Assembly (NCBI GenBank): GCA_048886185.1 | Contig: JBHLKY010000010.1 | Span: 48,526 to 80,525, forward strand | DNA from: Candidatus Hermodarchaeota archaeon | Lineage (GTDB): Archaea; Asgardarchaeota; Heimdallarchaeia; Hodarchaeales; Hodarchaeaceae | Direction: 5' to 3' | DNA: 32,000 nt | Shown: one piece after another, positions 1-18,228 of the stretch | Layout of the letters: every line of letters starts with the position of its first letter | Position numbering within the stretch: position 1 is the first letter of the stretch | Notes under the pieces: generated by a model | Database searches by the model: none | Seen by the model: only the letters and a program-made list of their open reading frames with translations | Told to the model about the DNA's origin: nothing | Program-made: the position numbers and the translations under genes

Positions 1-140
1 CAGCAATCGTGTTTCTTATAAGTGATATTGAATTGAGCAGTTCCAGATAGTTGTTCCAATAAATTAAATTATAATTTCTTGTAATGACTTCTTCAACCAT
101 CAAATGAGTATTACCGAGATTCAGGAGATTGGTTATTACA

Positions 141-1166
141 ATGACTTCTTTACGATCATTTATAGTGATGAGGATAGCCCTTTTACTGCCAATGATGTGG
201 TTATTAATAACTATTGTATTCTTTCTGTTACGAGTTCTTCCAGGAGCAAACCCTGCTCTTGTTATGAATCCGAAGTTGACACCAGAACAAGTTGAATTAA
301 TGTCAGAGAGATTTGGGTTAGATCGTCCATTACATGAGCAATATTTTGATTTTCTATTTAGATCCATGGTCTTCGATTTTGGAGTGTCATTTCGGACCAA
401 TAATTTTGTGGCAGTTGAAATAAGACAAGCTTTTGGATTGACATTAACATTAGGAACATTTGGTACTTTGATTGGTATTCCATTAGGGGTCATACTAGGT
501 GGTATTTCTGGAGCAAACAGAAACAGTATAAAAGATCATGCAATTCGATTATACACTATAGGAATTTATTCAATTCCAATATTCTTAGTAGGGATTTTAA
601 TGCAAATGCTGTTCTCTAAATCAGGAATTCTTATCCCACTACTACCTGCATTGTCACCAATGAGAGCAGGAGCGACTGGTGAATTTACAAAATATACAGA
701 TATATGGTTGATCGATACATTATTATCTGGGAGACCTGATCTAACTTTTGATCTAATTCTTCATATGATAATGCCCAGTGTAGCTCTAGGCATGTTAATA
801 GCTGGTGTAATCGCTAGACAAGTACGAACGAACATGATTTTTCAATTAGAGCAAGATTATGTCCATTTCGCAAGATCGAGAGGAATTCCAGAGAATACTG
901 TTGTTTATCGATATACTTTGAAGAATGCAGTTGTACCAACTATTGGCTTGATAAGTTTACAATTTGCTTTATTGCTAGCTGGTGCAATATTAACAGAGAC
1001 TACATTCAATATCCCAGGATTAGGAAGATATTTGTTTCTTGCAATTCAAGAGAAAGACTTTCCAGCAGTGCAAGGAGTCATGGTAGTTTTTGTTTTAGTA
1101 GTAAGCATTGTTAGCTTAATCGGGGATGTCCTTTATGCCCTCTTAGATCCTAGAATTACGTATTAA
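141..1166 (+). CDS. dppB: Dipeptide/oligopeptide ABC transporter permease (DppB/OppB family), operon 1
   Basis: N-terminal LLRVLPGANPA...FGLDRPLHEQYFDFL, EAA loop (FARSRGIPENTV), C-terminal ETTFNIPGLGRY...DFPAVQG...LDPRI. ATG 141 is preferred over TTG 129 because it aligns with the start of the second DppB. Confidence 0.93.
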   Translation: MTSLRSFIVMRIALLLPMMWLLITIVFFLLRVLPGANPALVMNPKLTPEQVELMSERFGLDRPLHEQYFDFLFRSMVFDFGVSFRTNNFVAVEIRQAFGLTLTLGTFGTLIGIPLGVILGGISGANRNSIKDHAIRLYTIGIYSIPIFLVGILMQMLFSKSGILIPLLPALSPMRAGATGEFTKYTDIWLIDTLLSGRPDLTFDLILHMIMPSVALGMLIAGVIARQVRTNMIFQLEQDYVHFARSRGIPENTVVYRYTLKNAVVPTIGLISLQFALLLAGAILTETTFNIPGLGRYLFLAIQEKDFPAVQGVMVVFVLVVSIVSLIGDVLYALLDPRITY

Positions 1167-1178
1167 ATCGGATTGTAG

Positions 1179-2105
1179 GTGAAAAATTTGGTAACGCCAC
1201 CCATAACTCAAAAAGGTCAAATTGGAGAGTCTAAAGCTATTATTATCAAATTTTGGGAGTTTATTAGATATAACAAGACATTAACTTTTGGGATTATCCT
1301 CTTAAGCATTATTGTGATAGTAGCCGTCTTTGCTGACTTTATTTCCCCCTATCACTATGCTGAAAGATTTCCTCAATTACGTTATGGGCCTCCCTCCTCA
1401 GAACATCCTTTTGGAACAACATTATTGGGATTTGATGTCTTAGCGAGAGTGATATATGGTGCTCGCGTTGCATTAATAATCGCTTTTTCTGGAACGATTC
1501 TGGCTTATATAATTGGTGTTCCTCTCGGTATTCTTTCAGGATATTTTGGAGGAAAGGTAGATAGGTTATTAACCCTTATAGCTGATGCAATCTATTCATT
1601 TCCCTCATTATTATTGGCAATTACTTTTGCCATCTACCTCTCAGGATTTGGTATACTCAAAACTGTTGCTGCTGTATCCTTTGCAACAGCAGTAGTTTAC
1701 ATCCCAACCTATTTTCGGGTTGTTCGTTCACAGGTTCTGCAAGTTAAAAAAGAAGGGTATGTTAATGCAGCAAAATCAATTGGTGCTGGAAAATTAACAA
1801 TATTAATTAGATATATAACTCCCAATATATTAGCAACTACAATTGCTATAATACCATTTAATATGACTGATGCAATTCTTACCAATGCAGGTTTAGCTTT
1901 CCTTGGACTCGGTATCCAACCCCCTACAGCAGATTGGGGATATGATGTTTATGATGCTAGAGCTCTTTCAAAAGTGCGTGCATATCCTTGGTTAATCTTT
2001 TTCCCTGGATTGATGATTTTTTTATTATCCTTTGCCCTTTCACTCATAGGTGATGCGCTCAATGACAAATTCAATCCCCTTATTAAACAAAAAGGAATTC
2101 AATAA
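1179..2105 (+). CDS. dppC: Dipeptide/oligopeptide ABC transporter permease (DppC/OppC family), operon 1
   Basis: PPSSEHPFGT..GFDVLARVIYGAR, EAA loop (YVNAAKSIGAG), AGLAFLGLG..PP..DWG, GDALND. The start is GTG 1179 or TTG 1188 (AGGTGA at 1177-1182). Confidence 0.93.
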   Translation: MKNLVTPPITQKGQIGESKAIIIKFWEFIRYNKTLTFGIILLSIIVIVAVFADFISPYHYAERFPQLRYGPPSSEHPFGTTLLGFDVLARVIYGARVALIIAFSGTILAYIIGVPLGILSGYFGGKVDRLLTLIADAIYSFPSLLLAITFAIYLSGFGILKTVAAVSFATAVVYIPTYFRVVRSQVLQVKKEGYVNAAKSIGAGKLTILIRYITPNILATTIAIIPFNMTDAILTNAGLAFLGLGIQPPTADWGYDVYDARALSKVRAYPWLIFFPGLMIFLLSFALSLIGDALNDKFNPLIKQKGIQ

Positions 2106-3093
2106 TAGGCCAACTCCTTTATTAGAAATTAAGAACTTAACGGTTGACTATCCAACCACTGAAGGAAATATACGAGCAGTTGATAATGTTTCTCTTAATC
2201 TCTATAGTGGAGAGGTTTTAGGACTTGTTGGCGAATCAGGTTGTGGAAAAAGTACTCTTGGATTTTCATTACTACGCTTATTAAGAGGGGGAGTTGTACG
2301 AAGTGGAAATATATTTTTTGAGGGTACAGATCTCTTATCGCTTTCTAAGTCAAAAATTCGGAAACTGCGAGGCTCTGATATTTCCATGGTATTTCAAGCA
2401 TCTCAAAACGCTCTAAATCCTCTTCAAAAAATTTCTAAACACTTCATTGATACATTAAAAGTTCATAATCTTTGGAATCCTGAGAAATGGGAAGATGTTA
2501 AGAACTTACTTCAACGTTTGGAAATTCCAGAATCACGTCTTGACGATTATGCGTTTCAATTTTCTGGTGGAATGCAGCAGCGTATTGTTATCGCTCTAAC
2601 ACTTATTTTAAACCCTAAATTAATAATTGCTGATGAACCAACAACAGCACTTGATGTTTTAGTTCAAGCACGGTTATTACAACTTCTTAAGGATATAATA
2701 AAGGAGTTTAAATTAACTGTTATCTATATTACTCACAATTTAGGAGTTGTTGCTGAAATCACTCAACGAGTTGCAATCATGTATGCTGGACAGATTCTTG
2801 AGGTGGGGGATACATTCACAATTTTTGAGGATGCTGCCCATCCTTATACACAAGCATTAATCTCAGCTATTCCGAACGTTAAAGATGAGGAAAAAAGAAA
2901 GATGAGTTTTATCCCAGGTCATCCTCCTGATTTAAGAAATCCTACTATAGGATGTTGTTTTGCTGATCGTTGCTCCTTTGCAATTGGGATATGTAAAACT
3001 ACCCTTCCCCACCCTCTCTCTCTCTCCTCAAAAAATGGCCACATGGTTAAATGTCTAATGTACGATGATAATTTTAGTTCAAAGTTTAAATGA
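2062..3093 (+). CDS. dppD: Dipeptide/oligopeptide ABC transporter ATPase (DppD/OppD family), operon 1
   Basis: Walker A GESGCGKST, signature FSGGMQQR, Walker B IIADEPTTALD, H-loop ITHN, C-terminal four-Cys oligo-HPY domain. ATG 2062 lies 7 nt after AGGTGAT and overlaps the dppC 3' end. Confidence 0.93.
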   Translation: MTNSIPLLNKKEFNNRPTPLLEIKNLTVDYPTTEGNIRAVDNVSLNLYSGEVLGLVGESGCGKSTLGFSLLRLLRGGVVRSGNIFFEGTDLLSLSKSKIRKLRGSDISMVFQASQNALNPLQKISKHFIDTLKVHNLWNPEKWEDVKNLLQRLEIPESRLDDYAFQFSGGMQQRIVIALTLILNPKLIIADEPTTALDVLVQARLLQLLKDIIKEFKLTVIYITHNLGVVAEITQRVAIMYAGQILEVGDTFTIFEDAAHPYTQALISAIPNVKDEEKRKMSFIPGHPPDLRNPTIGCCFADRCSFAIGICKTTLPHPLSLSSKNGHMVKCLMYDDNFSSKFK

Positions 3094-3100
3094 ATCTGGG

Positions 3101-4321
3101 ATGAAATTGACTCAAAATACAGATCTTAGTAAAGATCCCCCTTTACTTACAGTTAAAAACTTAAAGAAATACTTTCCTATTGAAGGTGGATTCTTTCAAC
3201 GCCTTTTCTCTAAAGAACAAGAATATGTGCATGCTGTGGATGATATCACTTTTTCAATAAATAGGGGTGAGATCTTTTGTCTTGTTGGTGAAAGTGGTTG
3301 TGGCAAAACAACAGCTGCAAATGTCATAATTGGGCTAGAAAACCCCACAGCTGGAGAATTTGAATGGAAAGGGTCTAACATAACTCATGATGAATTGAAG
3401 CCCAAAAAAGGGAACATAAAATCCCAAGTTGTTTTTCAGAATCCATTTTCTTCGCTGAGTCCACGAATGAGATTAGGGGACGCTGTTCTTCATTCATTGG
3501 TGATTCATGATAGAGTAGATGATCAAGATACTAAGAAAAAGAATAGAAACTCGATCTATTCAGAAATATTATTTGTATTAAGCAGTTTATTAGCCATGGT
3601 TCTACTTATTCTTGCTTTTGTTCTTGAAGAGATGGCAGCTGGGATAAGTGCGTTGTTAGGAGTTTTTATATTTGCAATTGCTTTATTTTCTTATTTTTAT
3701 TTCGCGGTGTATCAAAAAAACAAAATTGCAGATAGGACTGTATTGGGATTTTTTAATGAAATAGGTTTAACACCACCGAATCAATATTATTCTAAGTATC
3801 CTAACGCTGTTAGTGGGGGAGAAAGGCAGCGTGTTTCAATTGCACGAGCGATTGTACTTAATCCCGAGTTACTTGTGGCTGATGAACCCACAAGTATGTT
3901 AGATGTAAGTTTAAGGGCTGGGATTTTAGATCAATTAAAAGAAATACAATTAACTCACAATATTTCCATCCTTTTCATTACGCACGATCTAGCAACAGCA
4001 AGACATTTTGGGGATCGAGTGGCGGTAATGTATGTTGGAAAGATAGTGGAAATAGGGGACGTTGAGCAAATGTTCAAAAATCCTTTTCACCCGTACACAA
4101 ATGCTTTAATAGATGCAATTCCTACTCCTATACCTGGAGAAAAGAAAATCAACCTTCCGAAAGGTGAAGTACCTGATTCAATCACCCCACCATCAGGTTG
4201 TCGATTTCATCCCCGCTGTTCTATTGCTGATCTATCTATTTGCAGTACAGAAGAGCCAAAATTAGTGGAAAAATATCCAAATCATTTTGTAGCCTGTCAT
4301 TTTCCATTAGTCAAAAAATAA
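3101..4321 (+). CDS. dppF: Dipeptide/oligopeptide ABC transporter ATPase (DppF/OppF family) with an inserted two-helix hydrophobic segment
   Basis: GESGCGKTT, Q-loop VFQNP, VSGGERQR, VADEPTSMLD, ITHD, GCRFHPRC...C...VACH. About 60-65 extra residues, mostly hydrophobic, sit between the Q-loop and the signature. The start is uncertain (3065, 3101 or 3107). Confidence 0.9.
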   Translation: MKLTQNTDLSKDPPLLTVKNLKKYFPIEGGFFQRLFSKEQEYVHAVDDITFSINRGEIFCLVGESGCGKTTAANVIIGLENPTAGEFEWKGSNITHDELKPKKGNIKSQVVFQNPFSSLSPRMRLGDAVLHSLVIHDRVDDQDTKKKNRNSIYSEILFVLSSLLAMVLLILAFVLEEMAAGISALLGVFIFAIALFSYFYFAVYQKNKIADRTVLGFFNEIGLTPPNQYYSKYPNAVSGGERQRVSIARAIVLNPELLVADEPTSMLDVSLRAGILDQLKEIQLTHNISILFITHDLATARHFGDRVAVMYVGKIVEIGDVEQMFKNPFHPYTNALIDAIPTPIPGEKKINLPKGEVPDSITPPSGCRFHPRCSIADLSICSTEEPKLVEKYPNHFVACHFPLVKK

Positions 4322-17241: not shown

Positions 17242-18228
17242 TCATTTTGGGAACCAGCATGCAACAAGATGCCTGGGTGTTGTCTCTTCTAATGGAGGCT
17301 CTTCTTCACATTTTTTCTTCGCATAAGCACATCTGTCCTTAAATCGGCAGCCTGGTTTAGGATTAAAAGGGGTTGCAGCATCCCCATGTAGAAGAATTCG
17401 TTTTCGTTTACCTCGAATTTTGGGATTTGGAATTGGAACAGCAGATATAAGGGCTTCTGTATAAGGATGCATTGGATGCGAATACAATTCATCAGTATCC
17501 GTGATTTCAACAAGTTTGCCAACATACATTACTGCAACGCGATCTGAAACATGGCGAATGACTGATAAATCATGTGCAACAATAATGTATGTTAAATTAA
17601 GCTCATCTTGAAGATCATCAAGAAGGTTTAGGATTTGAGCCCGTATTGAAACATCAAGAGCTGAAACAGGTTCATCAGCAACAATTATATCAGGACTAAC
17701 AGAAAGAGACCGAGCAATACCAATTCTTTGTCTTTGGCCCCCACTAAATTCATGAGGATATCGATAAATGTGAAAAGGTGCTAATCCTACTAAGTCCATT
17801 AATTCCATAACTCTTTCTTCTGTCTCTCTTTTACTCTCTGCAAGATGATAAAGTTTTATACCCTCAGAAATTATATCATAAACAGTCATTCGGGGATTTA
17901 AGGATGAATAAGGATCTTGGAATACCATCTGAATCGATTTACGGAAGGATGGCATATCTTTTTTCTTGATTGTAGCGATTTCAATCCCATTAATCCAGAT
18001 TTCTCCTTTAGTTGGTTTATCAAGCCTTAAAAGCATTCTAGCAGTAGTCGTTTTGCCACACCCACTTTCACCGACTAAACCTAATGTTTCTCCTTTGTAA
18101 ACCTTGAAAGAAATGTTATCTACAGCATGAATATGCCCTTTTACTGTCTGACGGATTATTCCCTCTTTAACAGGAAAAAATTTGAACAAGTTGTTTACTT
18201 CAATAATTGGTTGTCCACTTGTTGCCAA
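17242..18228 (-). CDS. dppF: Dipeptide/oligopeptide ABC transporter ATPase (DppF/OppF family), operon 2
   Basis: GESGCGKTT, QMVFQDPYSSLNPR, YPHEFSGGQRQR, ADEPVSALDVS, GCRFKDRC...C...VACW. TTG start 6 nt after TGAGGT. Confidence 0.95.
   Translation of the reverse strand: MATSGQPIIEVNNLFKFFPVKEGIIRQTVKGHIHAVDNISFKVYKGETLGLVGESGCGKTTTARMLLRLDKPTKGEIWINGIEIATIKKKDMPSFRKSIQMVFQDPYSSLNPRMTVYDIISEGIKLYHLAESKRETEERVMELMDLVGLAPFHIYRYPHEFSGGQRQRIGIARSLSVSPDIIVADEPVSALDVSIRAQILNLLDDLQDELNLTYIIVAHDLSVIRHVSDRVAVMYVGKLVEITDTDELYSHPMHPYTEALISAVPIPNPKIRGKRKRILLHGDAATPFNPKPGCRFKDRCAYAKKKCEEEPPLEETTPRHLVACWFPK

Follow-up and report, generated by a model that had tools for sequence, protein, structure and literature searches.

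In textbook ABC importers the ATPase is wholly cytoplasmic, and its attachment to the permease depends solely on the coupling-helix groove and, in the family considered here, also on an Fe-S domain. The present locus raises the question of whether such an ATPase can, in addition, be tied to the membrane by helices of its own. The locus lies in a window of 32,000 nucleotides, i.e., the whole stretch of DNA that was analysed, from a Candidatus Hermodarchaeota archaeon, and it encodes a DppF-type ATPase with a long hydrophobic insert inside its nucleotide-binding domain (NBD). From the composition of the insert, its conservation and its predicted structure, it probably makes DppF an integral membrane protein.

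The gene is the last one in an operon for a PepT-type importer, in which the order is family-5 binding protein, DppB, DppC, DppD and DppF:

L004 8209–9852 (G000:C10:46734–48377), just upstream of the window: family-5 binding protein (PF00496 3e-71).
129–1166, plus strand: DppB/OppB-type permease (PF00528 3e-36, PF19300), with syntenic orthologs in 9 related genomes.
1179–2105, plus strand: permease of the DppC/OppC type, on which DppF is expected to dock (PF00528 6e-28, OppC_N PF12911).
2050–3093, plus strand: DppD/OppD-type ATPase, insert-free in alignment A1 (PF00005, PF08352).
3065–4321, plus strand: DppF/OppF-type ATPase with the insert (PF00005 3e-28, PF08352 8e-19), 418 aa from the ATG at 3065.

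The complete operon is kept in 9 related genomes, when synteny is read from the matching genome loci together with local tblastn. Among the operon proteins only DppF bears a hairpin, and DppD manages without one. The binding protein has an N-terminal signal sequence, and its C-terminus consists of GVPGF, a hydrophobic helix and KRKTKN, resembling a PGF-CTERM archaeosortase tail. Further upstream of the window lies a gene for a Ras-family small GTPase (L004:4539–5093, minus strand; PF00071 9e-47), typical of Asgard genomes.

The open reading frame at 3065–4321 on the plus strand (P0001) has an ABC_tran domain (PF00005, 3.3e-28) followed by a C-terminal oligo_HPY domain (PF08352, 7.6e-19). Its start is ambiguous within 3065–3109: the ATG at 3065 gives an overlap of 29 nt with DppD, a second ATG occurs at 3101 and a TTG at 3107. 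The database records begin DppF at the last of these, which gives a protein of 404 aa (P0004, 404 aa), and the Atlas start corresponds to residue 15 in the numbering used here. The functional motifs are distributed along the chain as follows:

3287–3310, plus strand: Walker A motif GESGCGKT, residues 75–82, invariant in family alignments A2 and A3.
3431–3445, plus strand: Q-loop VFQNP, in which Q125 is invariant.
3809–3826, plus strand: ABC signature VSGGER, residues 249–254, in which S250, G251 and G252 are invariant.
3869–3889, plus strand: Walker B motif LLVADEP, residues 269–275, in which D273 and E274 are invariant.
4199–4297, plus strand: the four cysteines C379, C385, C393 and C411 of the oligo_HPY domain, invariant in A2 and A3.

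The D-loop and H307 are also present, and all ATPase motifs are invariant or nearly so across the family. Judged by its sequence, DppF is thus a catalytically intact ABC ATPase of the OppF/DppF type, belonging to the PepT family (TC 3.A.1.5). In the E. coli DppF, four cysteines of the C-terminal domain bind a [4Fe-4S] cluster (PMC12136057), and by analogy C379, C385, C393 and C411 are probable ligands of such a cluster here. The scores of DppF fall below the NCBIfam equivalog cut-offs, with 257.9 bits against 660 for DppF_dipep and 267.8 against 540 for OppF (PRK15079), and for this reason the substrate of the importer is left unassigned.

The size of the insert follows from the spacing between the end of Walker A and the SGG of the signature. 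This spacing is 167 residues in DppF, compared with 101 in the paralog at 17242–18228 of the same window and with a median of 99 for the 65 NBDs of the genome, so that DppF has 66 extra residues. They are in frame and lie between the Q-loop and the signature motif, in the helical subdomain. In a MAFFT alignment with three insert-free paralogs of the window, the block unique to DppF covers about residues 150–224, and the module is spliced into the loop that joins two helices of this subdomain. In E. coli DppF, the corresponding point falls between about residues 130 and 145. The in-frame translation of 3533–3730 reads KKKNRNSIYSE-ILFVLSSLLAMVLLILAFVL-EEMAAG-ISALLGVFIFAIALFSYFYFAVY-QKNKIA. The original prediction had put the extra in-frame residues at about 60–65, had described the layout as KKKNR, a hydrophobic helix, EE, a second hydrophobic helix and QKNK, and had stated that all catalytic motifs remain. 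The count by spacing comes close to its estimate, the translation matches its layout exactly, and each of Walker A, Q-loop, signature, Walker B, D-loop and H307 was located and is invariant or nearly so.

The insert is divided into five parts:

3524–3565, plus strand: basic helical stalk, residues 154–167 (QDTKKKNRNSIYSE); the helix in the AlphaFold2 model starts at 154.
3566–3625, plus strand: predicted membrane helix 1, residues 168–187, 20 uncharged residues.
3626–3643, plus strand: short outer loop, residues 188–193 (EEMAAG), acidic or Gly/Pro-rich.
3644–3712, plus strand: predicted membrane helix 2, residues 194–216, 23 uncharged residues.
3713–3733, plus strand: basic C-terminal flank, residues 217–223 (QKNKIAD), leading back into the helical subdomain.

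The pattern of charge over these parts is kept in the family. The fraction of K or R at positions 157–161 of the stalk is 0.69–0.86 across members, the N-terminal flank has on average 4.2 K/R (43 members), and the stalk ends at E167, which is conserved in 98% of members. In the C-terminal collar (217–220, Q-K-x-K), position 218 is K or R in 96% of members and position 220 in 82%, and the C-terminal flank typically has 3 K/R and a mean net charge of +1.8 (43 members). Between these flanks, positions 169–186 have zero charged residues in all family members, while at positions 194–211 acidic residues are absent and K/R almost absent (49 members); Y210 of helix 2 is conserved in 92%. The outer loop has 0 or 1 K/R in 42 of 43 members and a mean net charge of −0.95. 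Its length is 5–8 residues in most members, 15–19 in five members, and is increased by 64 in one subclade. This is the composition expected for an integral hairpin, with two uncharged stretches of about 20 residues, flanks rich in K/R and a loop poor in K/R, and it differs from that of a canonical importer NBD, which has no membrane-spanning segment, in having two hydrophobic segments predicted to be such.

The hydrophobicity of the insert sets DppF apart from the other ATPases of the genome. The 19-residue mean on the Kyte-Doolittle scale reaches 3.04 within the insert and stays below 1.0 for every other NBD, so that a hydrophobic stretch in the interval from Walker A to the signature is found in only 1 of the 65 parsed NBDs, namely DppF. 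The membrane grade of the segments was judged by hydropathy scales; in crude 19-residue sums on the Hessa scale, helix 1 averages −2.8 kcal/mol and helix 2 −0.55 kcal/mol (43 members), compared with an average of +9 kcal/mol for the window of highest hydrophobicity in the rest of the protein. For helix 2 the hydrophobicity is marginal in some members, with sums up to +2.7 kcal/mol, and this counts against a full crossing of the membrane. Pfam matches to DUF6142 and DUF6442 on the insert are below threshold and were set aside as compositional matches between hydrophobic segments.

Small residues (G, A or S) recur at 166, 173, 177 and 184 in the first helix and at 192, 199, 206 and 214 in the second, in 80–100% of members, giving a heptad-like stripe on each. 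The helical periodicity, measured as a moment at 100 degrees, has a p value of 0.005 for small residues in helix 1 and of 0.001 for conservation in helix 2. Such a spacing of small residues is characteristic of antiparallel membrane helices in tight packing. The remaining helix faces vary freely in sequence and yet stay hydrophobic, as would be expected if they faced lipid.

An AlphaFold2 model, built with an alignment of 50 sequences, has the insert as an antiparallel hairpin with helices at 154–186 and 190–219 (pLDDT 86–95) projecting from the NBD core. The best match of the core is E. coli OppF (8z21_D: Z 33.5, rmsd 2.5 Å, 311 of 328 residues aligned), E. coli DppF (8z1v_D) gives a Z of 32.4, and Foldseek gives an E value of 4e-27 to solved DppF/OppF; in none of the solved structural relatives is there anything at the position of the insert. 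The nearest neighbours of residues 140–240 in the ESM Atlas are membrane hairpins, which is a lead only; among them are a CDP-alcohol phosphatidyltransferase fragment, SPW, DUF202 and an ABC_membrane fragment. The membrane hairpin with a positive-inside pattern, proposed in the original prediction, is therefore supported at the level of prediction, by segments of membrane grade, K/R flanks, an acidic or neutral loop and the modelled hairpin.

The insert is a property of a family, present in a group of Heimdall-class Asgard archaea, rather than of a single gene. Among 5.8 billion proteins, about 50 homologs were found (395–569 aa, 50–88% identity), which come from independent assemblies and are labelled Hodarchaeota, Kariarchaeaceae, Promethearchaeota and similar; some of the NCBI taxon labels disagree with the genome grouping, such as 'Thorarchaeota' on P0018. 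Two hydrophobic segments occur at the insert site in 49 of 49 homologs, and the insert-free paralog has no hydrophobic segment. The lineage conservation that had been proposed for checking by aligning homologs is thereby borne out, in that all close homologs have the insert. Two more distant carriers, P0213 and the ATPase of genome G397, bring the total to 51 relatives with about 45–88% identity. In the representative library, the family collapses to a few clusters at 50% identity (P0031, P0039 and P0213), and the profile search there was dominated by fused double-NBD proteins and thus has little power for distant insert-bearing relatives.

When 400 Asgard species genomes are considered, the insert segment occurs in 15 by search with a single sequence and in 16 by profile. 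Of the 22 genomes in the genus of the window, 10 are carriers, with the genome of the window counted; the others are 5 genomes from three further families of the class and one distant carrier, G397, in another class. The ATPase of G397 (L036:5853–7037, minus strand; 395 aa, 44% identity) has a two-helix insert; its gene immediately follows that for DppC and is itself followed by one for a DppD-like ATPase, so that the two ATPase genes stand in the reverse order when compared with the operon of the window. Five genomes of the genus that are near-complete and without the hairpin were searched for an insert-free ortholog, and only matches at the level of paralogs were found (42–51% identity, C-terminal half); from this follows that the whole operon appears to be absent from them, rather than the insert to have been lost. 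In a tree made without the insert columns, the 50 proteins with the insert group together, apart from the 12 paralogs of the genome (SH-aLRT 92), and this sequence grouping, with an outgroup as narrow as the 12 paralogs of one genome, fits a single origin of the insert. A second copy of the insert sequence in the genome was not found at E ≤ 1e-6. The insert thus exists, its character as a hydrophobic hairpin is conserved within one clade, and it is confined to DppF, which retains the ATPase motifs and the Fe-S cysteines.

Some members of the family are elaborated further. P0021, P0022, P0023 and P0026 (482–484 aa) form one subclade with 64 extra residues in the outer loop, and here AlphaFold2 predicts four helices (154–187, 195–218 with a kink, 220–248 and 255–283), with a pLDDT of 73–84 for the added part; on this model, the addition could make a four-helix membrane module or a helical pair on the outside. 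P0039 (561 aa) and P0036 (569 aa) bear the insert and have about 150 extra residues at the C-terminus, which in P0039 match a PAS fold (PF08448 1e-06, residues 398–471), a hint of regulation in some such importers.

The reading that best accounts for these observations, and which is probably correct, is that the hairpin truly spans the membrane with both ends in the cytoplasm, making DppF an integral subunit beside the permease; its purpose may be anchoring, coupling or regulation. The two tightly packed antiparallel helices would then cross the bilayer, with the basic collars holding both ends in the cytoplasm and only the short acidic loop reaching the outside, while the basic stalk of 14 residues and the short collar at the C-terminus would raise the hairpin into the bilayer from that face of DppF which is turned to the membrane. 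Within the NBD, no other region varies as much as the helical subdomain, which engages the EAA loops or coupling helices of the permease (PMC6906923). In the E. coli complex DppBCDF, it is DppC on which DppF docks, and from one state to another the helical subdomain turns by about 20 degrees (PMC12136057). Because this subdomain faces the permease and grips its coupling helix, the hairpin is expected beside DppC, at the edge of the translocator, and with DppF as an integral subunit the complex would have 12 + 2 helices. During the rotation of about 20 degrees in the transport cycle, the helical subdomain would carry the hairpin along as a rigid body. The simplest role under these assumptions would be permanent anchoring, by which the pairing of DppF with DppC in the asymmetric complex is stabilised. 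It counts against this reading that DppD, and also five paralogous importers in the same genome, have no hairpin.

The hairpin may also span the membrane and yet have regulation or the binding of a partner as its main task, so that it would be a built-in accessory subunit that either senses a signal within or beyond the membrane or docks another protein, and signals this to the ATPase via the helical subdomain. This is a serious but rather unlikely alternative, for which LptC offers the analogy: there, a separate transmembrane helix modulates LptB2FG. In its favour are the position of the insert within the very subdomain that transmits ATP-driven motion, the conservation of E167 and Y210 at the cytoplasmic base (92–98%), which goes beyond what a plain anchor needs, the outer loop as a hot spot of elaboration (the five members with 15–19 residues and the subclade with two further predicted helices), and the one member with an added C-terminal PAS domain. 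On the other hand, a loop of 5–8 residues, as found in most members, leaves no room for a binding site, packing inside the hairpin accounts for the conserved stripes, and no conserved extra gene lies beside the operon in the loci examined. The original prediction had suggested that the helices perhaps recruit a binding protein or an accessory partner. The C-terminal helix of the binding protein could be thought of as a partner, but it resembles a PGF-CTERM tail. Such tails are cleaved off by archaeosortase, and a lasting contact from helix to helix with the anchor of the binding protein is therefore not an obvious role. At a similarly low level of expectation, the hairpin could be a functional accessory membrane subunit within the motor, which either makes ATP hydrolysis responsive to the state of the bilayer or to that of a partner on the outside, or else completes the lateral wall of the DppC half-channel.

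That the hairpin is a monotopic, re-entrant anchor, which dips into the cytoplasmic leaflet without crossing the membrane, is improbable, although both its ends must stay in the cytoplasm and most members have a very short connecting loop. With 20–23 uncharged residues, each helix is long enough for a full span, and an acidic or polar loop that tolerates 10 to 64 added residues is hard to bury in the core of the bilayer. Because the loop is acidic and accepts such additions, it is expected to lie in water, which argues for a full span over a re-entrant wedge.

Still less probable is a helical arm that is soluble or buried in protein and mediates oligomerisation in the cytoplasm, in analogy with the arm of ABCF proteins or the coiled coil of Rad50/SMC. 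The site between Q-loop and signature is a known hot spot for helical insertions, and this genome has its own example in the OppD-type paralog L002:1471–2667 (contig C1, minus strand, 398 aa), where a hydrophilic, basic insert of about 75 residues occupies this very site of the NBD (180 residues between Walker A and SGG, with a Kyte-Doolittle maximum of 0.83); from this it follows that the site accepts soluble inserts in the same genome. The other long-spaced NBDs of the genome also have hydrophilic inserts. In DppF, however, 43 consecutive positions between the K/R collars are nearly free of charge, with the Kyte-Doolittle value of 3.04 against less than 1.0 for the hydrophilic inserts of the genome, and the sequence varies freely while staying hydrophobic, as lipid-facing surfaces do. 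The composition of a charged or amphipathic coiled coil is not found, D, E, K and R being absent at 169–186 and almost absent at 194–211 in 49 members. The insert is accordingly far too hydrophobic for the soluble, buried bundle that the original prediction had named as the contrary outcome. An assembly chimera, which it had named as well, a frameshifted pseudogene or an artefact of gene calling has a negligible probability, since the insert is in frame and free of stops and recurs, with the same boundaries and with conservation of the purifying type, in 16 of the 400 genomes that represent species and in some 50 metagenome proteins of independent origin; with 51 relatives from independent assemblies, an assembly artefact is excluded by the conservation data.

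Compared with solved systems, DppF combines a familiar core with an unfamiliar addition. Its NBD fold is that of E. coli DppF and OppF (8Z1V, 8Z21; PMC12136057) and of M. tuberculosis OppD (8J5Q), with Z values of 32–33.5, an rmsd of 2.5 Å and 31–38% identity. Like E. coli DppBCDF and OppBCDF, the importer of the window has all ATPase motifs, the four-cysteine oligo_HPY domain and the logic of a five-gene operon. In the solved DppF, OppF and OppD proteins, which are soluble and have 325–334 aa, a short link is found where DppF of the window has its 66-residue hydrophobic hairpin. The arms of ABCF/EttA and the coiled coils of Rad50/SMC are charged or amphipathic, remain in the cytoplasm and are likewise inserted between Q-loop and signature. 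The hairpin of DppF resembles them in being antiparallel and helical and in emerging on the side of the helical subdomain, and is unlike them in being uncharged over two stretches of 20–23 residues and in having a positive-inside pattern.

Extra or joined membrane helices are known from the LptC helix in LptB2FGC and from half-transporters with fused TMD and NBD. Such systems resemble the present one in that additional membrane helices are placed on a core transporter and the ATPase ends up tethered to the membrane; LptC is, however, a separate protein and the TMD-NBD fusions are joined at the ends of domains, whereas the helices of DppF are spliced inside the NBD fold. No description of an NBD with an internal membrane hairpin, or of one in the peptide ABC ATPases of Asgard archaea, was found in full-text searches of the literature available without subscription. 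The layout of a hairpin within DppF is real and conserved, and apparently unpublished.

If the insertion into the membrane is true, the chain of DppF departs from the catalytic fold, passes through the membrane two times and then comes back to the fold, and this would break the rule of modularity for importers. It raises the question of how an internal hairpin enters the membrane when 150 residues of a cytosolic domain have been synthesised before it, and also of whether a bilayer tether on the rotating helical subdomain alters the coupling between ATP use and transport. For annotation and proteomics, it means that proteins of this kind are to be expected with the membranes, while automated pipelines name them ordinary soluble ATP-binding proteins.
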